DNA from: a virus
DNA: 41,500 nucleotides
Virus genome (UHGV): UHGV-0377100
Direction: 5' to 3' (one strand)
Position numbers and translations under genes: made by a program
In this document: positions 4,828 through 39,884 of the stretch, piece by piece
Position numbering within the stretch: position 1 is the stretch's first letter
How the letters are laid out: each line of letters begins with the position of its first letter
The notes under the pieces: model-generated
Database searches by the model: none
What the model was told of the DNA's origin: nothing
The model's input: the letters and a program-made list of their open reading frames with translations, nothing else

Positions 4828-5742
4828 ATGAACATAGGTAATTTGAGAAATTTTATTTCAAATGTTGAAGCGGATGATAATGATAGTGTTGAAATGAAAA
4901 TGATTCAAAAAATAGGGAACGGTATATGGAGTCATACTCCACAGTTGACTATAGCGATGAGGGAAGAATTAAAAGTTTTTTACACTGAAATCCTTAATAA
5001 TAATTTTTTTGATTTAGAACAAAGTGAGTATAATCCTAATATAGTAATCGAAGGTTCACTACAAGTTTCAGATTTGACAAATGCTCACATCAATGAAGTA
5101 TTAGCTGAAATAGATCTTGAAGAAAACTGTAATGATGATATGGGAAATGTAGATTTAGATAAAATAAATTATTACAGATTTAAATTTAATTATAATGGAA
5201 ATAGTCTTTATATTTTTAGACGATTCACTAAAATGAAAAAAATTAGAAATGGTATTTTAGGTCGTTTTCAGGATAATACATTTAGAAAAATAGAGACTGA
5301 TGATTTTTTTGGAATAGATCGTGATATTGATATTTTGTTATTTGATAATGAGGCACTGATAGTCAATCGCTTTGCATTACAGACTATTTTTAAGCTTAAT
5401 GATTATTTTATTGAAAGAGCGACAACGGCGTTAAGCGAACTAGAAGAAGAAAACGTATTAGTAAATTTTGAAGACTTTAAAAATGATTGTTTAAATGATA
5501 AACTGGCAGCAAGAAGAATGACAAAAATCATTAATACCGAAGGTCGTTTGGAAGGCTTTTTACAGAATACAAGAAATTTGCCTGAGGTAATTGAACATTT
5601 TGATTTAGAAATAGAATTGAATGATAATAATCAAATCATATATAACGGAAGTAAAGAAGCACGAAGTCAGATTTTATTTTGCATATCAGATGCATATTAT
5701 CAATCGCTTATACTCCAAAGATTAGGTGAAGATCCTTCATAA
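4828..5742 (+). CDS. Hypothetical cytoplasmic protein, moron gene 1 (acidic, 305 aa).
   Basis: ORF track 4819..5742 opens with GTG. ATG at 4828 sits 8 nt after the AAGGAG RBS. No family recognised. Located in the arpU-terS moron hotspot. Confidence 0.6.
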   Translation: MNIGNLRNFISNVEADDNDSVEMKMIQKIGNGIWSHTPQLTIAMREELKVFYTEILNNNFFDLEQSEYNPNIVIEGSLQVSDLTNAHINEVLAEIDLEENCNDDMGNVDLDKINYYRFKFNYNGNSLYIFRRFTKMKKIRNGILGRFQDNTFRKIETDDFFGIDRDIDILLFDNEALIVNRFALQTIFKLNDYFIERATTALSELEEENVLVNFEDFKNDCLNDKLAARRMTKIINTEGRLEGFLQNTRNLPEVIEHFDLEIELNDNNQIIYNGSKEARSQILFCISDAYYQSLILQRLGEDPS

Positions 5743-5764
5743 ACAGAGGAAAGAGGTGAAGAGA

Positions 5765-6349
5765 ATGAGGACGATACAGAAAACATTATTTTATATGTCT
5801 TCTTTTATACCACTTTATCTGTTATTGATTGTTCAAAACTTCAAGTTCAGAAATGAATCAGGAAAATTTTCTTGGCAAACGATCTTTGATCAAATTAATT
5901 TTTCAAATAAAATTATTACATTATTTTGGATTGGCTTAATAGTCATGATTATTCTATCATTATTTGGATGTGTTATCTTTTTTAAGATTTATGGTGCAAA
6001 AGAAGGTAGAAATGGTAGCATATCAGATGCAGAATTTGTTAGAGAAGACACTATGGGGTATATTGTGACATATATAATTCCGTTGTTATCCATGGATATA
6101 ACAAGTTTGAGAAGCTTAGTAGTTAATTTACTGTTATTTATCATTATAGGGACTTTTTATGTTAAGAACGATCAGATATTTATGAACCCATTATATAATT
6201 TATTTGGGTATAATATATTTTCTGCTGAAAGTGGAATTTATATCACTAAAATATCCAAGCAAAAGTTGAAATTGTTTGCTAAAAGAGATGTAAAAGTTAA
6301 AAAGATAAATATAATGGGAGATATATACGTACTGAAAGAAAATGAATAA
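5765..6349 (+). CDS. Hypothetical 4-TM membrane protein, moron gene 2.
   Basis: ORF track 5726..6349. ATG at 5765 follows the AAGAGGTG RBS. Four hydrophobic helices (LFYMSSFIPLYLLLIV, IITLFWIGLIVMIILSLFGCVIFF, GYIVTYIIPLL, LVVNLLLFIIIGTFYV). Tightly linked to gene 1. Confidence 0.6.
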   Translation: MRTIQKTLFYMSSFIPLYLLLIVQNFKFRNESGKFSWQTIFDQINFSNKIITLFWIGLIVMIILSLFGCVIFFKIYGAKEGRNGSISDAEFVREDTMGYIVTYIIPLLSMDITSLRSLVVNLLLFIIIGTFYVKNDQIFMNPLYNLFGYNIFSAESGIYITKISKQKLKLFAKRDVKVKKINIMGDIYVLKENE

Positions 6350-6355
6350 ATTAGT

Positions 6356-6382
6356 AGCCATCGCTTATGTGGTGGCTTTTTA
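6356..6382 (+). terminator. Rho-independent terminator after the two-gene moron.
   Basis: AGCCATCGC-TTATG-TGGTGGCT followed by TTTTT. Near-identical to the terminator at 7378. Confidence 0.6.
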
Positions 6383-6410
6383 TAATGAATAATATTTTGT
6401 TTTTTTATAT

Positions 6411-6483
6411 CGGCGTGTAGCTAAATAGGTGATAGCGATTGATTTTTAATCAAGTACATGCAGGTTCGACTCCTGTCACGCCA
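6411..6483 (+). tRNA. tRNA-like gene, anticodon TTT (Lys), 73 nt, no encoded CCA.
   Basis: Manual fold: acceptor stem 6 of 7 pairs (C1 and A72 unpaired); U8; D-stem GCTA/TAGC with a GG-containing loop; anticodon stem 4 pairs plus an A-G closing mismatch; loop TTTTTAA with U33 and A37; 5-nt variable loop; T-stem GCAGG/CCTGT; T-loop TTCGACT. Confidence 0.4.
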
Positions 6484-6789
6484 ATAAGTGGCAAAACCAC
6501 TTAAATAAATTAGGAAACGTCAATAGATGTTTCTATCCTTCACGAGGAGGCATTCGCTTGTAGGATGTCTCTTTTTATATGCAAAAATACTTATAATTAA
6601 ATCATCAGAAATACATGATAGATTATAAGGAAACATAAATATCAAATTTGTAAAGCATTATATACTAAAAAGAGAATTATATATGATCACAAGTGGCACT
6701 CTAAAAGTAGAAGAAATAAAAAAAAGTAACACTATGAAAAGTACTCAACCTAAGGTAAAATAAAACAAAGATACTTTGGGGGGGTATAT

Positions 6790-7353
6790 ATGAGTTTTGT
6801 ATCGATTGCGGGTAATAAGAAATATATCAATGTCATGAGTGATGGTTTAGCAGTATATCAGGATGGGACAAGAGAAGAAAACTGGGAAAAATTTGTCAAT
6901 TACGATAATAAAAGATTTATAGCTTTCGCAGGAACCGTCCATTATTGTCAAAATGTGGTTACAGAAGCTTCTAAATATTTAGAGTTACCATACAATCAAT
7001 GGGTGAATCGGATTAAAGAATACGTCTCAAATATGCCGTATTCACAAGAAACGGGTAAAGCCATAATCTGTGTAGGTGGTAAGGATGGAACGTTAAAGTT
7101 TTCAAGTTTTTCAAATAAACCTGGGCAAAACTTTTATGATTTTGAATTAGTTGATGATAATATTCACTATGTGTTTTTAAGCAACATGGATGAAGAGGAT
7201 TTATTGGACAAAAAGTTTATGGAATTTGTAAAGAGATATCGTTCTGCTAAATCAAGAGATGTTCTGTTAGCTCAAAGAGATTTGAATAATTATGTTTCAG
7301 ATTTGAATCCAAATACTGTGAACAAAAATACTAGTTATTTTGTTTTGAAATGA
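6790..7353 (+). CDS. Hypothetical protein (187 aa), single-gene moron cassette.
   Basis: ORF with a GGGGG RBS. No recognisable family. Has its own upstream AT-rich promoter region and its own terminator. Confidence 0.6.
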   Translation: MSFVSIAGNKKYINVMSDGLAVYQDGTREENWEKFVNYDNKRFIAFAGTVHYCQNVVTEASKYLELPYNQWVNRIKEYVSNMPYSQETGKAIICVGGKDGTLKFSSFSNKPGQNFYDFELVDDNIHYVFLSNMDEEDLLDKKFMEFVKRYRSAKSRDVLLAQRDLNNYVSDLNPNTVNKNTSYFVLK

Positions 7354-7377
7354 TAGCTATTATTTTATTAAATTGAA

Positions 7378-7403
7378 AGTCATCGTTTATACGGTGGCTT
7401 TTT
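7378..7403 (+). terminator. Rho-independent terminator after moron gene 3, a near-copy of the terminator at 6356.
   Basis: AGTCATCG-TTTATA-CGGTGGCT (two G-U pairs) followed by TTTTT. Confidence 0.6.
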
Positions 7404-13495: not shown

Positions 13496-14428
13496 ATGAA
13501 GAAAAAACAATTAATGAAAATGGATATTCAAATGTTTGCTCAAACATGGAATCCAGACAACGTCACTGTATTAGAGAAAAAAGATGGAACAATTCCAGAT
13601 AAGTACAACACTTTAATTTTAAAAGATGTGATGGAAAATTCTAAGTTAATGCAGTTGGCTAAATATGAAGAAATGGACGGCAAAGAAAAGAAATTCGAAT
13701 ACTTTGCAGAAGGTCCTGGGGCGTACTGGGTTGGTGAAGGCGAAAAAATTAAAACGTCTAAACCTAAATGGTTAAACGTAACGATGACTGCGAAAAAAAT
13801 TGGTGTTATTATCCCAGTTTCTCGGGAATATTTAACTTATAAGATGTCTGATTTCTTTACTCAAATGCAACCAAAAATCGCAGAAGCATTTTATAAGAAA
13901 ATTGATGCGGCTACTATCCTTGATAAAGAAAATCCATTCTCTCAATCTATTGAAAAATCTGTCATTGCAGCTAGTAATGTAATTGAGGGCGACTTGACAT
14001 ATGACAACATTTTAGCATTAGAGGATTTGCTTGGAGAAGGTGAATACGATCCGAATGCTTTCATTTCTAATCGTAAGAATCGTACAGTGCTACGTGAAGC
14101 AAGTAAAAAAATTGGTGACACAACTCAATTTATTTATGATCGTGTCAGCAATACTATTGATGGACTACCTGTAGCAGATCTAAAATCTATGGATAAGGGA
14201 AACCTTTATACTGGTGATTTTGATTACTTGCGCTATGGTATCCCATTTAACATTAATTTCAAAATTTCAGAAGAAGCTCAATTATCTACTTTAACGAATG
14301 AAGACGGTACGCCTGTCAACTTGTACGAACAAGAATTGGTTGCTTTACGAGCTACAATGGATATTGGTTTCATGGTCATCAAAGATGAAGCATTTGCTAA
14401 GATTCAAACAAAAGCTGCGGGGGAGTAA
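13496..14428 (+). CDS. Major capsid protein. A longer form to 14490 is predicted via a -1 shift near the stop.
   Basis: 310 aa ORF after the scaffold gene. N-terminus MKKKQLMKMDIQMFA|QTW carries a Prp-like motif. The -1 frame stays open from 14401 to 14490 and encodes the conserved peptide SPVVGKVTPTTNGATIELT. Confidence 0.75.
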   Translation: MKKKQLMKMDIQMFAQTWNPDNVTVLEKKDGTIPDKYNTLILKDVMENSKLMQLAKYEEMDGKEKKFEYFAEGPGAYWVGEGEKIKTSKPKWLNVTMTAKKIGVIIPVSREYLTYKMSDFFTQMQPKIAEAFYKKIDAATILDKENPFSQSIEKSVIAASNVIEGDLTYDNILALEDLLGEGEYDPNAFISNRKNRTVLREASKKIGDTTQFIYDRVSNTIDGLPVADLKSMDKGNLYTGDFDYLRYGIPFNINFKISEEAQLSTLTNEDGTPVNLYEQELVALRATMDIGFMVIKDEAFAKIQTKAAGE

Positions 14429-14501
14429 CTAGCCCTGTTGTCGGAAAAGTAACACCGACAACAAATGGGGCGACAATCGAACTAACTTAGGTGGTGTTTT
14501 G

Positions 14502-14834
14502 ATGTCAGAGATAGCAAATGATGTAAAAAAATTATTAAATGGCAGTCTTGATGAAAAATTAGAAATCATTGAAAGACGTACAAAAGATCGGCTTCAAAAT
14601 ATATTGAATGTCATTGAGTTACCAAAAAGTTTTGATTCAGTTGTATATGAAGTCACTTTAAAACGATTTAATCGTATTGGCCAAGAAGGAATGCAATCTT
14701 ATTCTCAAGAAGGTTTATCTATGGCATTTCCAGACTCTGATTTTTCTGAATATCAAGATGAGATTGAAGAGTATAAGAATAAGGAAATAGAAGAACTTTA
14801 TAAGCCTAAACGTGGGAGGTTTACATTTTCATGA
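14502..14834 (+). CDS. Head-tail connector (gp6-like).
   Basis: Position and size. ATG at 14502 after an AGGTGGTG RBS. Confidence 0.5.
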   Translation: MSEIANDVKKLLNGSLDEKLEIIERRTKDRLQNILNVIELPKSFDSVVYEVTLKRFNRIGQEGMQSYSQEGLSMAFPDSDFSEYQDEIEEYKNKEIEELYKPKRGRFTFS

Positions 14835-15166
14835 GATATTTAGATGAAATTACCTTTGTAAAAAAATCTTCAGAATCGCATTATGATCCAAATTCAGGTG
14901 AATGGATTGAAGAAGAACCGTTTAGAAAAACTGCTGATGTCAATGTAACTGATATTGGTACAAATCGTTCTATTACTATTTTCGGAAGCATTAAAGAAGG
15001 GGCTAAGGTCATTAGGACACAGCCCCTTTTCGTTATTCCAGAATTTGATTACATTGAGTTTGAGGGTAAAACTTGGGAAGTTATTACAAGTAGAGTTCCT
15101 GCATTAAGAAATAGCTTGATTATTCAGGAAGTGACTATTGATGGCAAGAAGTCAAGTAAGAATTAA
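14831..15166 (+). CDS. Head closure / head-tail adaptor.
   Basis: Overlapping start, 111 aa, position in the module. Confidence 0.5.
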   Translation: MRYLDEITFVKKSSESHYDPNSGEWIEEEPFRKTADVNVTDIGTNRSITIFGSIKEGAKVIRTQPLFVIPEFDYIEFEGKTWEVITSRVPALRNSLIIQEVTIDGKKSSKN

Positions 15167-15521
15167 TGGATTAGCTGGAATTTCTAAAAAACTAAAGAGA
15201 AATGCTCAACTTGATGATGTGAAAAAAGTTGTTAGAAATAACACAGCAGAATTAACCGCCAATATGCAAGCTGAAGCCGGAAAAGTGTTAACTGGACACT
15301 GGGAAGGTAAAAAGTTTGTTAAACCAACTGGGGCAACAAAAAGAAGTATCATTATGAGGCTTTCGAACAATGGTTTTTCTGGGCATACAGGACCAGGAAC
15401 GGAATACGCACCGTATTTAATAAACGGTACGAGATTTATGGTGAAACGTGATTTCTTTTTACCGCCGCTGAAACAACAAAAAGTGAAATTTAGAACGGAC
15501 TTGGAAAGGTTGATGAAATGA
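15138..15521 (+). CDS. Tail component (HK97 gp10-like).
   Basis: Position and size. Confidence 0.45.
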
Positions 15522-15907
15522 TTAAAACAAGAGATCAATCAATCTTCGATGAAGTGTATAAGAAGTGTCAATCACTGGGTTATGAAACCTACGATTATAA
15601 ACCTATGAATGATGTAGGTTATCCATTTGTCGAATTAGAAGATACTCAGACACTGCACCAAGCCAACAAAACTGATATTAAAGGTTCGGTTACATTGAAT
15701 CTATCTGTATGGGGATTGGCAAAAAAACGTAAACAAATATCGGATATGGCTTCAGCAATTTTTGCTGAGGCTCTATCTATTTCTGAAACGGAAGGTTATT
15801 ATTGGTCGCTCAATATCCAATCAAGCGGTATTCGGTTAGTAGATGACATTTCGACTAACACACCATTGAAGCGGGCAATGATATCTTTAGAATTCAAAAT
15901 ACTATAG
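15518..15907 (+). CDS. Tail completion protein.
   Basis: Position directly before the major tail gene. Confidence 0.45.
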
Positions 15908-15922
15908 AGAGAAGGAATATAA

Positions 15923-16453
15923 ATGGCTAATGAAGCAAAAGTAGCGGCTAAAGGTATTGATATTATTTTACTTTTCCGTTTGTTAAAAAAATCAAAAGAG
16001 GAAGCAGCATGGAAATTAGCTTTCCAGACAGAACATGAAAATACAAAAACAAAAGATAGTGACTCTGTGACCACTAAAGATGGTCCGATTCGCATCCCAG
16101 GATCATTGGAAATTGATTTTTCGGCAACATCTATTTTATCAGTCGGTGATCCGTATGTTGACCAGCTAGAAGAAGCTTTAGACAATGACGATATTATTGA
16201 AATCTGGGAAATCAACAAAGCAGAAAAAGGCACAGGAGATAATGCTGACAAATACAAGGCAACCTATTACCAAGGATACGTAACATCATTTGGTAAATCG
16301 CCTAATGCTGAAGACACCGTAGAAGTTTCATTAGAATTTGGTATCAATGGTAAAGGTGCAAAAGGATTTGCAACATTAACTGCTGATCAAGAAGAAGTAG
16401 TTCAATATGTCTTCAAAGATACGACTATTGAAACAGATGATCCGGGAAAGTAG
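15923..16453 (+). CDS. Major tail protein. A longer form to 16515 is predicted via -1 frameshift at G GGA AAG (16444-16450).
   Basis: 176 aa ORF before the Ig-like and chaperone genes. The slippery heptamer lies in the last codons. The -1 frame is open from 16441 to 16515 and encodes VDSPVVGNVTPTVDGASIELS. Confidence 0.7.
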   Translation: MANEAKVAAKGIDIILLFRLLKKSKEEAAWKLAFQTEHENTKTKDSDSVTTKDGPIRIPGSLEIDFSATSILSVGDPYVDQLEEALDNDDIIEIWEINKAEKGTGDNADKYKATYYQGYVTSFGKSPNAEDTVEVSLEFGINGKGAKGFATLTADQEEVVQYVFKDTTIETDDPGK

Positions 16454-16533
16454 ATAGCCCTGTTGTGGGTAATGTAACTCCTACAGTCGATGGGGCATCT
16501 ATTGAATTAAGCTAAGAAAGGAAAATTAATATA

Positions 16534-16989
16534 ATGGATACTTTTAAAATTTATAAAGGCCAAACCGAAGTTGTTTCCGGCACATCACCTTTAACTATAA
16601 CAGGAATGGAACCTGACACCTCAGTGCCGGCTGGTGAGTACCAAGTAACTCGTGTTGTTAATGGGAAAGAATCAGAGCGAGTAGATATTCCAGCTTTTAA
16701 AACATTGTCTATTGCTGTAACTGGCTTAGAGTTTTCTCCTAAAACATCAACAGCAGATGCGGGTACTGCAGGTAGCCGACAAATCACAGCAACTGTCTTG
16801 CCTGAAAATGCAACCAACAAAAAAGTAACCTATAAGATTACGCCTGAAACAGAAGGTCTTGCTGTCTCTGAAACAGGAAATATTACTTGGACAGAAGCGG
16901 TACCGGCTGGTGTTTATACCACAACAGGAACAACAGAGGATGGTAAAAAAACAGCTCAACACACCTTAACATTGAATAATCAAGCTTAA
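16534..16989 (+). CDS. Ig-like (Big_2-type) domain protein.
   Basis: Beta-rich, Thr/Gly-rich repeats (TYKITPETEGLAVSETGNITWT). Confidence 0.55.
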   Translation: MDTFKIYKGQTEVVSGTSPLTITGMEPDTSVPAGEYQVTRVVNGKESERVDIPAFKTLSIAVTGLEFSPKTSTADAGTAGSRQITATVLPENATNKKVTYKITPETEGLAVSETGNITWTEAVPAGVYTTTGTTEDGKKTAQHTLTLNNQA

Positions 16990-17001
16990 AATAAAATTTA
17001 G

Positions 17002-17028
17002 AGGGCAGCTTAGCGGCTGTCCTTTTCT
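17002..17028 (+). terminator. Rho-independent terminator.
   Basis: GGGCAGC-TTAGCG-GCTGTCC followed by TTTTCTT. Confidence 0.5.
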
Positions 17029-17043
17029 TATGGAGGAAAAGAC

Positions 17044-17394
17044 ATGCAAATCGAAATTAAAGGGAAAAAATATAACTGTATTTTTGGAGTCAAGTTTATT
17101 CGTGAATTGGATAAGCAGCATGGGGTAGTTCGTAATGATGTGAATCTTGGTATGGGACTAACAACATTATTACCGCAGCTAGTAAGTGGAAATATCGTTG
17201 TTCTATCTGATGTACTTTACACAGCTACCATTACGGAAAAAAGTAGACCTTCTAAGGATGAAGTAGATGAGTTTGTTGAAACTGTTGATGATATTGAGGC
17301 GTTATTTGATGAAACGTTGAAAAACTTAGAAGAAAGCAATGCGGGAAAGTTAACGGTCAGAAATTTCAAGAAAGCTCTGATGGAGAACAAGTAA
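17044..17394 (+). CDS. Tail assembly chaperone G.
   Basis: 116 aa acidic protein directly upstream of the tape measure gene. Confidence 0.65.
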   Translation: MQIEIKGKKYNCIFGVKFIRELDKQHGVVRNDVNLGMGLTTLLPQLVSGNIVVLSDVLYTATITEKSRPSKDEVDEFVETVDDIEALFDETLKNLEESNAGKLTVRNFKKALMENK

Positions 17395-17744
17395 GAGAGG
17401 AGCTAACCTCAGCTGAAGCTTATGAAAATATTCTTATTAATTGTTTTCGTTACCTAGAAATTACTGATTTATCAAAAATCGAACGAATGACTTTGTATGA
17501 ATATGAAGTTAGGCTATTGTCGTTTCAGTTAAAAAGACTTGACCATGAAAGAGACCTCTATCTTCAATCTTGGCTAAATAACCAAATTAAGGCGACTAAA
17601 GGTAAAAAATCTGAACCTTATTATAAGGAATTCAATAAGTTTTTCAATTATGAAGAACGAGAGAAGCTTATTTTGGGTAAATCATTAATTGATGAAAAAG
17701 TTGATATAGGAGCAATAGATTTATTAAGAAAAGCAAATAAGTAG
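17044..17744 (+). CDS. Tail assembly chaperone GT fusion produced by -1 programmed frameshift at G GGA AAG (17343-17349).
   Basis: The -1 frame is open from 17343 to 17744 and contains the annotated 17487..17744 ORF. The canonical XXXYYYZ heptamer sits 45 nt before the G stop. Confidence 0.6.
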
Positions 17745-17759
17745 GAAAGGAGGAAAATA

Positions 17760-20700
17760 ATGGAATCATATTCAGTCGAAGCAATACTTACTGCCACTGA
17801 TAGAACGTTTAGTAGCACGATGAGTAGCGCTGAACGTTCTATGGCTGGTGTAAACAAGCAATCTGGTGAGCTAGGGGATGGATTGGATAAAAGCACCACT
17901 AAAGGGAATCAATTAGGCAAGTCAATTCTTAGTATTGGAGCAGGTGTGGGTGCCGTAAAATTAGTGTCTACGGCCGTAAATATGGTTAAGGATTCTGTTG
18001 AAGGAGCTATTAACCGTTTTGATACGTTGAATAAATATCCTGTAGTTATGAAGGCTCTAGGTTACTCAACAGAAGATGTAGATAGATCAATGACTAAGTT
18101 AAGTGATGGAATTGATGGGCTTCCTACATCGTTAGATGAAATCGTATCAAATACGCAACAGTTAGCAATTTCAACTGGTAGCTTGAGTAAAGGAACTGAC
18201 ACAGCTATTGCATTAAATGATGCCTTTCTTGCTTCTGGAGCTTCAACTGCTGATGCAACTCGTGGTATGCAACAATATATTCAAATGCTCGGTAAGGGTG
18301 AAGTTGATATGCAGTCTTGGCGAACATTACAAGAAACAATGCCGATTGCGATGGATAAAGTTGCTAAGTCTTTCAAAGAACAAGGTGTAAACTCAGTTAA
18401 CCAATTATACGATGCCTTAAAAGAAGGAGATATTACATTTAATGAGTTCAATAATCGTTTGATTGAGTTGGACAAAGGCGTAGGTGGTTTTGCGGATTTA
18501 GCCAAGAAAAACTCAAAAGGTATCAAGACCTCATGGGCAAATATTAAAACAGCCACCGTTAAAGGTGTAACTACAGTTATTAAATCATTTGATGAATTAT
18601 CCAAAGCAGTGACAGGAAAAAATATTGCCGAAAATTTGGACTCTTTAAAAAATGTAGTGAATATAACTTTTAAGGCAATTGATGCAGCGATTCAATCAAC
18701 TATTCCATTGATGAAACTATTCGGAAAAGCAATTACGTCAATAGGTACAGCCTTAACACCATTACTACCAACAATTGCCAGTTTTGCTGCTACCTTCACA
18801 GCATTGAAAGTAATTCAGCAAGTGACAGGCTATATAAAGCAATCTGAATTGGCAATCAAAGCTTATACAACCGCAATAAGTTTATACAATGGAATATCAA
18901 AACTGGCTACGTTATCTACTACAGCACTCGGAAGAGCATGGATGTTAAACTTAGCAGCCGATAAAGCCAATTCTGCAGCAATAGCAATAAAAACTGGTCT
19001 TTTAGTGGCGCAAAATACAATCGTTGGTGTTTTGACGGGAACAATTAGTTTAGCTACAGTAGCTACAACTGTTTTTAGTACCGCTATGAAATTGTTATTG
19101 GGCCCTATTGGTTGGGTAATAGCCGCAATAGGAGGACTAGTAGCTGTAGGGGTAAACTTGTGGAAATGGTTAAATAAGGAAACTGAATCAACTAAGGCAG
19201 TTAAAAAAGAGCAAGAAAACCTTATGAAAACCACAGATGACTTGATTAAAAAGAATCAAGAACATGCACAATCCCGAAAAGATGAAGCTATTGAGTTAGA
19301 AAATACTAAAGAAAAATATAATTCAATGATTTCTGAAATGGCAACGCTCGCTGCTAAAGAGAAATTAAGTAACAGCGAGAAAAAACGTATGACAGAAATT
19401 GTTGAAGAGTTAAACGGTAAAATGACTGGTTTAAACTTAGTTTACGATGAACAAAGTAATAAACTTTCTGAAATGCCAGGTAAAATTCAACAACAAATGG
19501 ACGCATATAGCGCATTAGATAAAGCTTCTCAAGCTCAAGAAGATATCAATAAGATGTTGCAGCAAAGAAATGACAATGAAGCAAAATTAATGGAAATCAA
19601 TGCAGCTAGGGAAAAATGGAATCAGACGTTAAAAGAATCTGGCGGGAATACAAAAGAAGCTCGTGAAAATATTGAAAAATTGGGCGAGCAAGAAAAAGTT
19701 TTGATGGGCGTTCAAGAAGATTTGAGAAATGATATTATAAATACTGCTAAAACACATGAATCCGCAATCCAAACAGCTAGTCAAGCTGTAGCAAATGGAG
19801 TTTTAGAGCAGACAGTTTCTTACTATTCATTGAAGGGTAAAACAAAAGAAACAATGGATGCTATGCGGGCTGAATATTCATCGCTTGAAACAAAAGTGGG
19901 TAGCGCCTTTGATGTTATTGAGCAAAAGCAGGCTATTTCAGTTGATCAGATGGCTGCTAACTTACAGAAGAACCAAGAAGCTGTTAGCCAATGGAGCACT
20001 AATATTGCTACGTTAGCACAGCGAGGGGTAGATGAAGGGCTTTTAGAGCAACTAAGGAAAATGGGGCCTGAAGGTGCTGCCCAAGCAGCAGAATTAGTTA
20101 ATTCTTCAGATGAACAATTACAACGCTTAAATGATGTCTATCGTAATACTGGTGAAACTTCCATGAATGCGATGAAAGAAGGCTACCAGTTAGGTAAAAA
20201 TGGTGTTAATGATGAAATAGCAAGCCTCATCCCAACCCAAAAAGATACATTAATGACTCAGATTAAGAGCACCGATTTTAGTAGTGTAGGTAAAAGTGTT
20301 ACTGAAGACTTTAAAGCAGGAATTGAGAATGGTAGAAATGCAGTAGCAGAAATGACCAAAGGAATTGTTCCACAAATGGGAACCGATATGAAAGGTGAAG
20401 TTGAAAAGGCTAATTTCCCTGATATAGGTAAAGCTATCCCTCAAGGTCTAGAGAAAGGTATTGGAGCTAACAAACAATTACCTGTAAAAACATCTAATCA
20501 AATGATTGATGATGTTGTTTCTGGTGCCAGAAAAGGTTTAGATTCTCACTCTCCTTCTCGTGTATTTCACTCAATTGGTGAAGATGTTGATTCTGGATTA
20601 TCAAACGGTATCGAACAAAACGCAATGAATCCAGTAAGAGCTGTTGAGTCTATTGTTGATAAAATAATTTTTGCAATGGATAAATTGCCATCAGAAATGA

Positions 20701-21167
20701 ATTCTATCGGAGCAAATGCAATTGATGGATTGACTAATGGTATTAACGCCAATGCTAATAGTGCTTTAGCTGCAGCAAGAGGTGTGGCAGATCAAATTGT
20801 AAGTACAATGAAAAGCGCTATGGATATTCATTCTCCATCACGTGTAATGCGTGACGAAGTAGGTAAAATGATTCCAGCAGGAGTAGCGGTTGGTATTGAT
20901 AAATATTCAAACTTTGTAGAAAAATCTATGCAACGACTAAGTAAAAAAGTAGCCATGCCAGCGCTGGATAATTTAAATTCAAATCTGTCATTTAGTGGCG
21001 GAACACAAAGTTTAGCGTTTTCTGGAGATGTATCTTCAAAATTCACTGTGGAGGTACCTGTTATTTTAGATAGTACAGAGGTTGCAAGGGTTATTGCTAA
21101 ACCAATGAGTAAAGAATTGCAGAATCAACAAGATAAAAAGAATGTTTCTTTAGGAAGGAGGCGCTAA
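17760..21167 (+). CDS. Tape measure protein.
   Basis: 1135 aa with alpha-helical repeats and hydrophobic segments, in the canonical position. Confidence 0.85.
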   Translation: MESYSVEAILTATDRTFSSTMSSAERSMAGVNKQSGELGDGLDKSTTKGNQLGKSILSIGAGVGAVKLVSTAVNMVKDSVEGAINRFDTLNKYPVVMKALGYSTEDVDRSMTKLSDGIDGLPTSLDEIVSNTQQLAISTGSLSKGTDTAIALNDAFLASGASTADATRGMQQYIQMLGKGEVDMQSWRTLQETMPIAMDKVAKSFKEQGVNSVNQLYDALKEGDITFNEFNNRLIELDKGVGGFADLAKKNSKGIKTSWANIKTATVKGVTTVIKSFDELSKAVTGKNIAENLDSLKNVVNITFKAIDAAIQSTIPLMKLFGKAITSIGTALTPLLPTIASFAATFTALKVIQQVTGYIKQSELAIKAYTTAISLYNGISKLATLSTTALGRAWMLNLAADKANSAAIAIKTGLLVAQNTIVGVLTGTISLATVATTVFSTAMKLLLGPIGWVIAAIGGLVAVGVNLWKWLNKETESTKAVKKEQENLMKTTDDLIKKNQEHAQSRKDEAIELENTKEKYNSMISEMATLAAKEKLSNSEKKRMTEIVEELNGKMTGLNLVYDEQSNKLSEMPGKIQQQMDAYSALDKASQAQEDINKMLQQRNDNEAKLMEINAAREKWNQTLKESGGNTKEARENIEKLGEQEKVLMGVQEDLRNDIINTAKTHESAIQTASQAVANGVLEQTVSYYSLKGKTKETMDAMRAEYSSLETKVGSAFDVIEQKQAISVDQMAANLQKNQEAVSQWSTNIATLAQRGVDEGLLEQLRKMGPEGAAQAAELVNSSDEQLQRLNDVYRNTGETSMNAMKEGYQLGKNGVNDEIASLIPTQKDTLMTQIKSTDFSSVGKSVTEDFKAGIENGRNAVAEMTKGIVPQMGTDMKGEVEKANFPDIGKAIPQGLEKGIGANKQLPVKTSNQMIDDVVSGARKGLDSHSPSRVFHSIGEDVDSGLSNGIEQNAMNPVRAVESIVDKIIFAMDKLPSEMNSIGANAIDGLTNGINANANSALAAARGVADQIVSTMKSAMDIHSPSRVMRDEVGKMIPAGVAVGIDKYSNFVEKSMQRLSKKVAMPALDNLNSNLSFSGGTQSLAFSGDVSSKFTVEVPVILDSTEVARVIAKPMSKELQNQQDKKNVSLGRRR

Positions 21168-22097
21168 ATGTTATACAACTTTATTGATGTAAATGAACAA
21201 CAAACAAAAGCCTCTTTGCCTTCGGAAGCCATGAATTTTAATGGTTCCTTTTTAGAAGATTTAGTTCCAGGTTATAGAACATTATCTGTTGTTGGAAGAG
21301 AGTTAGCTCCTACTGAGATACAAAGCTACCAGTTGGGAATTCGTGATGGAATGCGACATGTTTATGCTCGTATTCCGGAAAGAGAATTAACAGTTAAATT
21401 CAAAGTTGAGGCTAACTCTAACGAAGCGTTTAGGGATTCTTTTAACAGACTAAACGTTGCTTTGTTTACAGAAAAAGATGTACAGATTTGGTTTAATGAT
21501 GAACCAGAAATGCTTTGGTCGGGTAGTAAATCAGACGTTGATGCAGTTCCTGAGGGATTGAATCGAGTCGTTGGTACATTTACAATTTTGTTGAACAATC
21601 CATATAAATATACTCGAAGCGATGCTACTAGTGTTATGTGGGGTTCAACAGAAATAACGTTTCAGGCTAACTATCTTATGGGTAATACTGGATCAGGGGC
21701 TGTTGACTTACCTATTGTTATTGAAGGTGGGGCGTATTGGGGTTCAACCATGATTACTTTTCAAAACCGTTCCTATCTAATGGGAGATAATGGTCAAGAA
21801 GTGAAGCCGATTGAAATATATCCAACTGTCGAAGGGTTAAAAGTAAAACCGATTATTACTATAAAAGGTACTGGTAGAGGCGTGTGGATAAAAACTAGAA
21901 GTGATACTATTGATATTGGTGATTTTGATAAATCAGAAATAGTGATTGATACAGAACAGTTTAATATTACGAAAAACGGGAAGCCAATGATTCGTCCTAT
22001 GAACGATTTTTATATTTATCCAAATGAGCCACTATACATCCAAGCGAAAGATAGTACTTTTAATCTAACTATTCGATATCCAAATCGTTTCTTATAG
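21168..22097 (+). CDS. Distal tail protein (Dit).
   Basis: 309 aa directly after the tape measure gene. Confidence 0.65.
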   Translation: MLYNFIDVNEQQTKASLPSEAMNFNGSFLEDLVPGYRTLSVVGRELAPTEIQSYQLGIRDGMRHVYARIPERELTVKFKVEANSNEAFRDSFNRLNVALFTEKDVQIWFNDEPEMLWSGSKSDVDAVPEGLNRVVGTFTILLNNPYKYTRSDATSVMWGSTEITFQANYLMGNTGSGAVDLPIVIEGGAYWGSTMITFQNRSYLMGDNGQEVKPIEIYPTVEGLKVKPIITIKGTGRGVWIKTRSDTIDIGDFDKSEIVIDTEQFNITKNGKPMIRPMNDFYIYPNEPLYIQAKDSTFNLTIRYPNRFL

Positions 22098-22113
22098 GAG
22101 GTGTTGCTAAAAT

Positions 22114-24132
22114 ATGTTGATGGCAATGGATTTAAAAAGAGAATATACGGCAGTTTTAGATAACGCTTATAATGTTGGATATGAAAAAATTGAAAACCAA
22201 ATAGGGAATCTAGAATTTTCAATGCCGTTGGATGATCCTAAAAATGAATTTTTGCAAGAAATGTTATGGGTTGAACTAACAGATAATGAAAATGAATATA
22301 TAGGATTATACCGTGTTATGCCTTCAACGGTTCGCAAAGATGCTAGTAACAATTCAATCACGTATACGGCAAATGAAGCTCTGTGTACTTTGCTAGACAC
22401 AGTTCTTTTTGGTTATCATGAACTAGTGAATCGAAAAACGGTTGATGTTATTAACTATCTTTTGAATAAACAAAGGTCAAAACACTGGGTTTTAAAAAAA
22501 TGTGAATTCACTCGGTATTTTAGTTATGCATGGGAAAATGAAAATGGTCTCGCTGATGCCTTGTTTAGTATTCCTCAAGCATTTGATGAAGACTACATGT
22601 GGCAATGGAATACCAAAGTTTATCCATTCGAATTATCTTTAGTGAAGCCACCAAAAGAACCTGTTGCTCGTATTCAAGAAGGATATAACATGCAAGGTTT
22701 TGAGATTGAAAGAGATCCTAACAATTTAGTTAATCGAGTTTATCCTTTAGGTGCTGGTGAAGGCGTCAATCAGATAAATATAAAATCAGTGAATAAAAAT
22801 GTCCCTTATGTAGAAGATTCACAGTCGATAAAAGATCACGGTTTAGTTGAATATGTTTGGGTGGACCAACGATTCACAGTTCCGCAAGCTTTAAAAGACA
22901 ATGCAATCAACATGTTAAAAAAATGGGCACAGCCTAAAATTTCTTGGGATGTGACTGCGGCTGATTTATTGAAATTAACAGATGAACCTTTAAGCATTGA
23001 TAAGTTAAGACAAGGAACTGTGATTATGATTAACACAGATGACTTTGGAAGTATAAATTTACGTATTAAAAAAGAGACAAAACAGGATGTATTCGGTGCC
23101 CCACAAGATATTCAGCTAGAGCTTGGTAATTTATCTGACGATTTTACTACGACAATGTCTGATTTGAAACGTAAACAGGAAATAAATGAGACATACTCGC
23201 AAGGTGCAACGAATATTTTGAACTATAGTTATCAAGATAACTGCGAAAAGGCCTACCCAGCAGAAATTGAATTCTTCTTAGATGATGATGTATTTCATGT
23301 AAATACTGTAGAACTGACTTTTAAAACTAAGCGCTATCGTGGCTACACAAAAGCCGTAAAAGGAGGCGGAGCTACGGTTAAAAGTACTTCAGCTGGTGGA
23401 GCTTCAACACAAACGAGTTCAGCTGGTGGCGGAAGTGTCGTTTCAAGTTCAGCTGGAGGAGGCTATTCTAGTGGATCCACCACAGGTGGAGGAGGAGGTA
23501 GCATTCAATCCAGTTCTGTAAATGGTCAAAGCTCACAAACAAGTTCAGCAGGTGGAGATCATAATCACCTGGTTGCAACTAATAATGGTAGCACTGAATC
23601 AAGTGCATTTTATCGAGAAATGGATGCGGGGTCAGGTATGAGATTTAGACTAATGTCGACTGCATCAACAGATTGGTACACAAAGACGAGCTCAGGTAAT
23701 CATACTCATAATGTGACTACACCGGCACATTCCCACACAGTGAATACACCTAACCATAGTCACAATTTTAATATTTCTATACCAAACCATACTCACAGCA
23801 TATCAGTTCCTAGCCATAGCCACCAAGTAAGAATACCGGCACATACACACCAAATTACTTTACCTGATCATAGCCATCCATTAGAATGGGGAATTTATGA
23901 GGCACCAAGTAGCGCAACTAGTGTTGATATAGTTGTAGATGGTACCACCATTCCAGTACACGATACTAGCCAACAAAGACTAAACATTGTTAATTACCTT
24001 AGGAAAACTAGTGGCGGTAAAATCTCTAGAGGTAATCATACAATCAAGATAATACCTAACAAACTTGCACGAATCGAAGCGCAAGTTATTTGTCGTGTTT
24101 TTATACAATCACAATTAGGAGGACAATTTTAA
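22114..24132 (+). CDS. Tail-associated lysin / baseplate hub (Tal, prophage-tail endopeptidase family) with Gly/Ser-rich and HxH repeat regions.
   Basis: 672 aa after Dit. Internal SAGG(G) repeats and eight (P)xHxH repeats. Confidence 0.65.
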   Translation: MLMAMDLKREYTAVLDNAYNVGYEKIENQIGNLEFSMPLDDPKNEFLQEMLWVELTDNENEYIGLYRVMPSTVRKDASNNSITYTANEALCTLLDTVLFGYHELVNRKTVDVINYLLNKQRSKHWVLKKCEFTRYFSYAWENENGLADALFSIPQAFDEDYMWQWNTKVYPFELSLVKPPKEPVARIQEGYNMQGFEIERDPNNLVNRVYPLGAGEGVNQINIKSVNKNVPYVEDSQSIKDHGLVEYVWVDQRFTVPQALKDNAINMLKKWAQPKISWDVTAADLLKLTDEPLSIDKLRQGTVIMINTDDFGSINLRIKKETKQDVFGAPQDIQLELGNLSDDFTTTMSDLKRKQEINETYSQGATNILNYSYQDNCEKAYPAEIEFFLDDDVFHVNTVELTFKTKRYRGYTKAVKGGGATVKSTSAGGASTQTSSAGGGSVVSSSAGGGYSSGSTTGGGGGSIQSSSVNGQSSQTSSAGGDHNHLVATNNGSTESSAFYREMDAGSGMRFRLMSTASTDWYTKTSSGNHTHNVTTPAHSHTVNTPNHSHNFNISIPNHTHSISVPSHSHQVRIPAHTHQITLPDHSHPLEWGIYEAPSSATSVDIVVDGTTIPVHDTSQQRLNIVNYLRKTSGGKISRGNHTIKIIPNKLARIEAQVICRVFIQSQLGGQF

Positions 24133-39406: not shown

Positions 39407-39884
39407 ATTTAGCATTGTTATTGAGTTCAATTGATAAAACTTCGAAGTTGTCATCAGCTAGCAACATAGAGTCTAGTCTTGTTCCACTTTCTAGGAAATG
39501 TACATTTTTTACTAGGGTAGTTACAGGTTTCTGTGATTCGAACTTCAAACTGTTTTCAGAAACAAAATCAAGCACTTTTTTTAGTAGTAAATCTGGACGC
39601 GAAAAAGCTTGTTTTGTAGAAAATATACGACTTTCTACAGAACTTCTCCAAATTGAAAAGAGTTCTGTAGCTAAACAACCATTAATCGTTTTTTTCTGAA
39701 TATCAAAGTCATAGTCAAATTCTTCTAATGAAATATGCGTTTTACTGTCATTCAACGGCAAGAATTCAGCAGTTAAAAGTTTTCCTTTGTAATTCACAAC
39801 CAGAGAAAATTCTTTCTTTTCATTATCTTTAAACTGCATCGCATAAAGAAGGTAGTATACGGCTTGTACTTGGCTTAAATTCAT
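39393..39884 (-). CDS. Reverse-strand moron gene (163 aa) with its own promoter.
   Basis: Minus strand -10 TATAAT (complement of 39921-39926), RBS GTGAGGTG, ATG. No family recognised. Confidence 0.5.
   Translation of the reverse strand: MNLSQVQAVYYLLYAMQFKDNEKKEFSLVVNYKGKLLTAEFLPLNDSKTHISLEEFDYDFDIQKKTINGCLATELFSIWRSSVESRIFSTKQAFSRPDLLLKKVLDFVSENSLKFESQKPVTTLVKNVHFLESGTRLDSMLLADDNFEVLSIELNNNAKFIGY

Follow-up and report, generated by a model that had tools for sequence, protein, structure and literature searches.

Between its major tail protein and tape measure protein genes, the phage genome UHGV-0377100 carries two short open reading frames in different registers, and the question is whether they yield two independent proteins or are joined by a -1 ribosomal frameshift into one tail assembly chaperone, a fusion of G and T. 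The window, by which we mean the whole 41,500-nt stretch of DNA that was analysed, belongs to a temperate siphophage of Enterococcus faecalis, of the EFC-1/phiEf11 type. The region of interest is 98.5% identical to EFC-1, 96.5% to phiEf11 and 94.9% to vB_EfaS_IME197, all of which are temperate E. faecalis siphophages. The features discussed below are as follows.

15923..16453, plus strand: major tail (tube) protein gene (Pfam PF06199, E=1e-18), the upstream partner in the gene order
16534-16989, plus strand: ORF for an Ig-like protein (He_PIG/Big_2), between the tail tube gene and G
17044..17394, plus strand: G ORF for the 116-aa, 13.1-kDa tail assembly chaperone that standard translation yields
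17313..17394, plus strand: 82-nt overlap, open in both the G frame and the -1 (T) frame
17343..17349, plus strand: slippery heptamer G_GGA_AAG at codons 101-102 of G, proposed as the main site of the -1 shift
17349..17744, plus strand: T segment, reached through the predicted slip into the -1 frame (131 codons, from GTT 17349 to TAG 17742-17744)
17361..17367, plus strand: second in-register heptamer, A_AAT_TTC, in the same G/T overlap and 18 nt downstream of the first
17487..17744, plus strand: 85-aa ORF from the ORF track, a separate CDS in related records, whose ATG is the internal Met of a conserved ERMT motif
17760..21167, plus strand: tape measure protein gene (1135 aa; PF20155 TMP_3, E=3e-32) with an AAGGAGG Shine-Dalgarno sequence

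The G/T pair shows the lambda-type gene order, with the major tail protein gene (PF06199) on one side and the tape measure gene (PF20155) on the other. By analogy with lambda, the G domain is presumed to target the tape measure protein and the T domain the major tail protein.

Reading frames and homology of the G/T pair

The G frame starts at ATG 17044, with a GGAGG Shine-Dalgarno sequence 7 nt upstream, and ends with TAA at 17392-17394, in agreement with the end at 17394 given by the initial annotation. The same annotation had placed a heptamer in the register G GGA AAG at 17343-17349; both the sequence and the codon phase counted from 17044 bear this out, the zero-frame codons being GCG (A100), GGA (G101) and AAG (K102), i.e. 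the canonical X_XXY_YYZ register. The distance of 45 nt reported between heptamer and G stop is right when counted to the last base of the stop, and is 42 nt when counted to the stop codon. The -1 frame, described as open from at least 17343 to 17744 with the second ORF inside it, is indeed so and is open already from 17313: after a TGA at 17310-17312 it runs to the TAG at 17742-17744 and holds the 85-aa ORF, whose ATG at 17487 is the first ATG, GTG or TTG of this frame after 17313. Because both frames are open only from 17313 to 17394, any productive shift must fall there. A slip at 17343 would produce a GT fusion of 233 aa, composed of G residues 1-102 followed by 131 T residues that would begin with VNGQKFQESSDGEQVREELTSAEAYENILINCFRYLEITDLSKIERMTLYEY. 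Its computed mass is 27.1 kDa against 13.1 kDa for G, slightly larger than the roughly 25 kDa proposed earlier. That the ORF track displays two separate ORFs and misses the fusion also holds for the relatives in RefSeq. In NC_025453.1, NC_013696.1 and NC_028671.2 (L001 to L003), G and T are two CDSs with no ribosomal-slippage join, they are named 'tail chaperone protein' and 'tail assembly chaperone', and T is annotated from the internal Met.

The G protein matched the Pfam family PF12363 (Phage_TAC_12) with E=4e-32 and 111.4 bits, against a gathering cut-off of 26.2; its residues 2-108 cover profile positions 1-110 of 111. It also matched phrog_183. The predicted fusion was recognized as a unit by PHROG 441 (tail assembly chaperone, length 257), with residues 1-233 aligned on profile positions 1-236 (E=1.2e-69). 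Within the T segment, the match to PHROG 441 begins at residue 12, which is about 35 codons upstream of ATG 17487. No Pfam match was found for the T segment, and a sequence search with GT against solved structures returned nothing at E<=1.

In the RefSeq records of EFC-1, phiEf11 and IME197, T is given as an independent 85-aa protein starting at ATG 17487, with no frameshift involved. In line with that reading, an ATG-initiated ORF does exist, and it is annotated on its own as a 'tail assembly chaperone' CDS. We nevertheless consider it very unlikely. ATG 17487 stands alone among the 12 starts compared in the structural module (13496-24132) in having no Shine-Dalgarno core in the 25 nt before it, and it sits 93 nt past the G stop, too distant for ordinary termination-reinitiation coupling. 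An alignment of the -1 frame peptides from 16 lineages revealed a conserved block (aYe.i.ncfRYLgi..l..iERMTL.EY) upstream of most annotated T starts, which themselves are scattered among the relatives between 13 and 75 codons from the opening of the frame. Met 17487 aligns with the internal Met of the ERMT motif, and both conserved residues and the PHROG homology reach further upstream by about 35 codons. The alignment thus indicates that ATG 17487 is an internal Met and not a start. Furthermore, substitutions upstream of this codon follow the -1 frame: in the gap 17395-17486, where only the -1 frame is free of stops, the ratio of synonymous to non-synonymous changes among five close relatives is 6:3 in the -1 frame against 2:7 and 0:9 in the two other frames. 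Finally, mutating the heptamer of the lactococcal phage TP901-1 abolished tails (PMC4493119).

The putative slip column across relatives and its proposed mechanism

Taken from the sequence alone, the heptamer is weak and non-significant evidence. GGGAAAG occurs four times in the window against 4.26 expected, so the motif is not enriched. In-register X_XXY_YYZ heptamers were found 78 times in the 8905 codon positions of the window's long plus-strand ORFs, a rate at which a 25-codon overlap would contain some such heptamer by chance with P of about 0.2. In-register GGGAAAG is found only twice among these 8905 positions, at 17343 and at 16444. Since the heptamer by itself is statistically unremarkable, the case rests on homology and comparison, and its significance comes from the comparative data.

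The fusion was searched with tblastn against 50,697 phage records, of which 211 matched, and the full-length matches were all split into two pieces. T lies in the -1 frame relative to G in all 18 annotated loci, and the same holds for each of the relatives compared, which amount to about 60 distinct sequences and go down to 30% identity. A scan of IMG/VR provided 33 close relatives with an identical junction, GGGAAAG included, and, at 41-61% identity, another 42 distinct G-T sequences, all of which have a long -1 ORF. In the untruncated loci among these 42, the -1 ORF spans 111-168 codons compared with 3-40 codons in the +1 frame. A canonical in-register heptamer is present in 33 of the 42 (20 GGGAAAG, 12 AAAAAAC and one AAAAAAG). 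In the codon alignment, NCG GGA AAG (motif N-A/T-G-K-L) occupies a single column in the window, Brochothrix NF5, D2SVT and Lactococcus TP901-1, and the sequences that share the GGGAAAG column with the window are only 42-49% identical to it in protein. The joint probability of the synonymous codon choices in the three other lineages is about 5e-7, a rough value that assumes independent lineages and is based on the codon usage of the window (GCG 9.5% of Ala, ACG 14% of Thr, GGA 32% of Gly, AAG 22% of Lys). Several lineages have a -1 frame that becomes open just 0-9 nt ahead of the heptamer, which places the shift at the heptamer.

The column is not always occupied by a canonical heptamer. The nearest intermediates, two IMG/VR loci with a 61% identical G (L060 and L061), have GCG GGG AAG at this position, while Javan516-like phages have GC[A/G/T] TCA AAG where the window has GCG GGA AAG. 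The -1 layout of G and T is kept without a canonical heptamer in L060, L061, L007, L064-L070, L081 and L095. Since L060, L061 and the Javan516-like phages do without it, the canonical heptamer is dispensable in the family, and these non-canonical variants may be single-tRNA or P-site slippage sites. Across the Phage_TAC_12/PHROG 441 lineage, the aligned sequences indicate that the column of the putative slip site is fixed while its content varies between GGGAAAG, GGGGAAG and TCAAAG.

One of the phages sharing the column, PQ554527.1 ('Acinetobacter phage D2SVT', L005), is labelled as an A. baumannii phage; its G/T pair is 46% identical to that of the window and has the same heptamer column. This G/T type is usual in Firmicutes phages, and many IMG/VR loci (the L082-L107 group, with a G of 122 aa) resemble it. 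The host label may deserve a check.

The second heptamer of the overlap, A_AAT_TTC at 17361-17367, offers another place for the shift, wholly or in part, and would also give a 233-aa fusion. It is formally a canonical X_XXY_YYZ in the correct register, and it shows no variation among the 33 close relatives or in the sister prophage L020. This invariance says little, as those relatives belong to the phiEf11-like clade and are >94% identical; with the junction unchanged throughout, they are uninformative as to which heptamer is used, and only relatives at 61% identity or less could discriminate. Among the latter, AAATTTC is found in none of the 42 distant sequences, whereas GGGAAAG recurs in its column. 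In every lineage outside the phiEf11 clade, the A_AAT_TTC column is non-slippery (GAA CTC, ACG CTC, AGA ACA, GAC ACC, AAC CTG). In bacteria, X_XXA_AAG sites are also far more shift-prone than sites ending in TTC. A shift at 17361 is hence unlikely in our judgment. The two sites predict different junctions, namely ...AGKLTVRNF followed by QESSDGE... for 17361 and ...AGK followed by VNGQKFQESSDGE... for 17343. The predicted tryptic markers are NFQESSDGEQVR for the former, and VNGQK together with FQESSDGEQVR for the latter.

Transcriptional slippage, or a frameshift mutation or sequencing error in what used to be a single GT gene, would produce an identical two-ORF appearance in any one sequence. 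Polymerase slippage needs runs of roughly 6-9 nt or more, and the homopolymer runs here (GGG and AAA) are just 3 nt, far below this requirement. An error or recent mutation is ruled out by the identical two-frame layout in about 60 distinct sequences from many genera, and no in-frame GT fusion allele was seen at the G/T site in deposited proteins or IMG/VR loci. Taken together, we regard explanations of this sort as exceedingly improbable.

Our preferred reading, to which we assign a probability of roughly 0.88, is that a -1 slip at G_GGA_AAG 17343-17349 yields the GT tail chaperone fusion. The programmed -1 frameshift claimed by the initial annotation is thus supported by gene order, register, the PHROG 441 match, conservation and the TP901-1 homolog. 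Its view that the arrangement is a conserved one for tape-measure chaperones was likewise upheld, by about 60 distinct relatives and by the same column in TP901-1.

According to this reading, most ribosomes translating G (17044-17394) would stop at TAA 17392, giving the 116-aa G protein. A small proportion would slip by -1 while tRNA-Gly and tRNA-Lys sit on the GGA and AAG of G_GGA_AAG; the two tRNAs would re-pair on GGG and AAA (tandem slippage), and reading would continue in the -1 frame from GTT 17349 to TAG 17742. The output would be the 233-aa fusion of G residues 1-102 with 131 T residues. By analogy with lambda and TP901-1, many G and few GT would use their G domain to coat the tape measure protein. 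Tube polymerization would start once the T domain recruits the major tail protein, and neither chaperone would be expected in the virion. We infer the occurrence of the slip, its efficiency and its role in assembly.

We also searched for elements that could stimulate the shift. Four folds of the region downstream of the G/T site did not outperform those of shuffled controls (z-scores between -1.3 and +0.3), and a consensus fold computed from four homologs with the same site contained zero base pairs. Substitutions in the sister prophage L020 disrupt a weak local stem downstream (-5.7 kcal/mol, z about 0). No upstream Shine-Dalgarno-like stimulator (GGAGG-like motif) is visible in the sequence before 17343. 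The heptamer appears to act alone, without a stimulator. Because there is neither a conserved structure nor a Shine-Dalgarno-like stimulator, a low efficiency of a few percent would be expected, as in lambda.

The -1 sites of E. coli dnaX and of insertion sequences (IS) combine A_AAA_AAG with a Shine-Dalgarno-like element before it and a hairpin after it, and the dnaX type reaches roughly 50% efficiency. The predicted site resembles them in A-site tRNA-Lys slippage on A_AAG within a tandem-slippage heptamer. In contrast, it has no Shine-Dalgarno-like element and its hairpin is weak and non-conserved, from which low efficiency is expected. The -1 programmed frameshift of lambda gpG/gpGT was reportedly worked out by Levin, Hendrix and Casjens in 1993 and by Xu, Hendrix and Duda in 2004, 2013 and 2014, and G_GGA_AAG is, we presume, lambda's own G-T heptamer. 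The site studied here is similar to that of lambda in that no stimulatory structure is evident, but its G domain is a Phage_TAC_12, typical of Firmicutes phages. The review by Atkins et al. (PMC5009743) lists G_GGA_AAG as highly shift-prone in E. coli, gives a lambda gpG:gpGT ratio of about 30:1, and states that the G part binds the tape measure protein and the T part the major tail protein, neither being in the virion.

TP901-1 provides the closest experimental counterpart. Its gpG/gpT pair (ORF43/44) is a true homolog, with 42% identity over the whole predicted fusion and the same PHROG, and GGGAAAG lies in the same column (ACG GGA AAG TTA in TP901-1, GCG GGA AAG TTA in the window). In that phage, when GGGAAAG at the gpG 3' end was replaced, capsids formed but tails did not, and the mutant had no detected major tail protein or Dit, the distal tail protein; a permanent gpG-gpT fusion led to normal-looking but non-infectious particles (Stockdale et al. 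2015, PMC4493119). The two phages differ in host genus, Lactococcus being the host of TP901-1, and in the length of the overlap, which is 43 nt there and 82 nt here. TP901-1 also lacks a second in-register heptamer.

A second G_GGA_AAG and a phage tRNA

The other in-register copy of G_GGA_AAG (16444-16450, plus strand) directly precedes the stop codon of the major tail protein gene, in the context CCG GGA AAG TAG. A -1 slip at 16444 would add 21 aa (VDSPVVGNVTPTVDGASIELS) and end at TAA 16513 (element 16444-16515). We considered whether this slip could fuse the tail protein to the Ig-like ORF at 16534-16989, and rejected the idea since TAA 16513 intervenes. Three in-frame alleles of the same extension were found in sister prophages, namely phiEf11 (CCAGAAAAAG), L020 (CTGGGAAAAG) and L030 (CACGGGAAAG). 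Their codons read CCA GAA AAA GTA in the phiEf11 type, CTG GGA AAA GTA in L020, where the run contains one extra A, and CAC GGG AAA GTA in L030. The contrast between the alleles is one of GGGAAAG (slip) versus GGGAAAAG (in-frame). The slip-dependent form with an intact extension ORF was present at 24 loci, including the window, EFC-1 and IME197. Across the IMG/VR loci, the codon before this heptamer was CCG, TCG or CTG, always ending in G. The tail protein clusters comprised 159 member sequences for the 197-aa form and 30 for the 176-aa form, and more distant tail proteins had no extension.

A hairpin at 16451-16501 (plus strand) follows the tail-protein heptamer (-19.7 kcal/mol, z=-2.2; an equally good fold in only 5 of 200 shuffles), and its G+C-rich inner stem begins 6 nt past the heptamer. 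The hairpin is not specific to slip alleles, because it is also found in the in-frame allele of L020 (-20.8 kcal/mol, z=-2.7). Frameshift-extended major tail proteins are known from SPP1 (gp17.1/gp17.1*, +1) and from Lactobacillus phage A2 (-1), both cited in PMC5221750. The site at 16444 resembles these in that a slippery site ending the major tail protein gene would give a C-terminally extended minor form. It differs in that the extension is just 21 aa and has no Ig-like domain, the Ig-like ORF (16534-16989) being separate. The site could plausibly be a second -1 frameshift or a 'rescued' indel. One possible, though doubtful, scenario is that the same heptamer is used twice within 900 nt (16444 and 17343), with one Gly/Lys tRNA pair setting both tail-assembly ratios. 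Related prophages would in that case produce the long tail protein alone or mixed with the short one, depending on whether their allele is in-frame or slip-dependent.

Slipperiness of A_AAG depends on the tRNA-Lys repertoire of the host. The window encodes a tRNA with the anticodon UUU (Lys) at 6410-6485 on the plus strand (ARAGORN; Rfam RF00005, 60.7 bits), which would read the A-site AAG codon in each of the two heptamers. Positions 5600-7400 of the window had no match in EFC-1 or phiEf11, and no tRNA was found in the first 24 kb of the EFC-1 record (early region through the capsid gene). IME197 has a homologous tRNA (L022 3671-3744; record positions 39670-39743) that is 90% identical and unannotated in its record, but differs at anticodon position 36, giving UUC (read as Glu) instead of UUU (Lys). 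The sequences suggest that a single tRNA body has switched its anticodon. A link between the phage tRNA(UUU) and the slippery alleles was considered and rejected, as EFC-1 keeps both heptamers and the IME197 homolog reads UUC. Because EFC-1 has both heptamers and no tRNA in the 24 kb scanned, the phage tRNA is needed for neither shift. Modulation of A_AAG slippage by this tRNA is considered unlikely.

Annotation and significance

No fused GT protein of this lineage was found among deposited proteins; the search returned nothing beyond proteins consisting of G and a 139-aa piece of the -1 ORF from the edge of a contig. Our literature search found no description of a G/T frameshift for phiEf11-like phages. 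The G/T pair (ORF17/18) is unmentioned in the phiEf11 virion proteomics paper (PMC5221750), as is expected of chaperones, which are non-virion components. The same paper proposed a -1 frameshift at the capsid gene ORF10, where AAAAAAA precedes TAG, adding 21 aa. We examined this candidate in the window and rejected it, since the capsid gene here (13496-14428) is a different one and has no in-register heptamer near its stop. It encodes 310 aa, the same length as the annotated capsid gene of EFC-1 (933 nt), and differs from phiEf11 ORF10 (L019 2114-3127).

The G/T shift predicted here is well supported but ordinary, an unannotated case of a very well-known kind. Its value lies mainly in annotation, as the RefSeq/GenBank records of EFC-1, phiEf11 and IME197 miss the predicted 233-aa GT, and the correction for them would be a ribosomal-slippage join at the position homologous to 17349. 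For the engineering of E. faecalis phages, the heptamer should be kept when the region is recoded, given that site removal and fusion both gave defective phage in TP901-1. The variants of the slip column are of modest interest for the tolerance of non-canonical frameshift sites. More broadly, the predicted shift would add another example of the recoding event that is most widespread among tailed phages.
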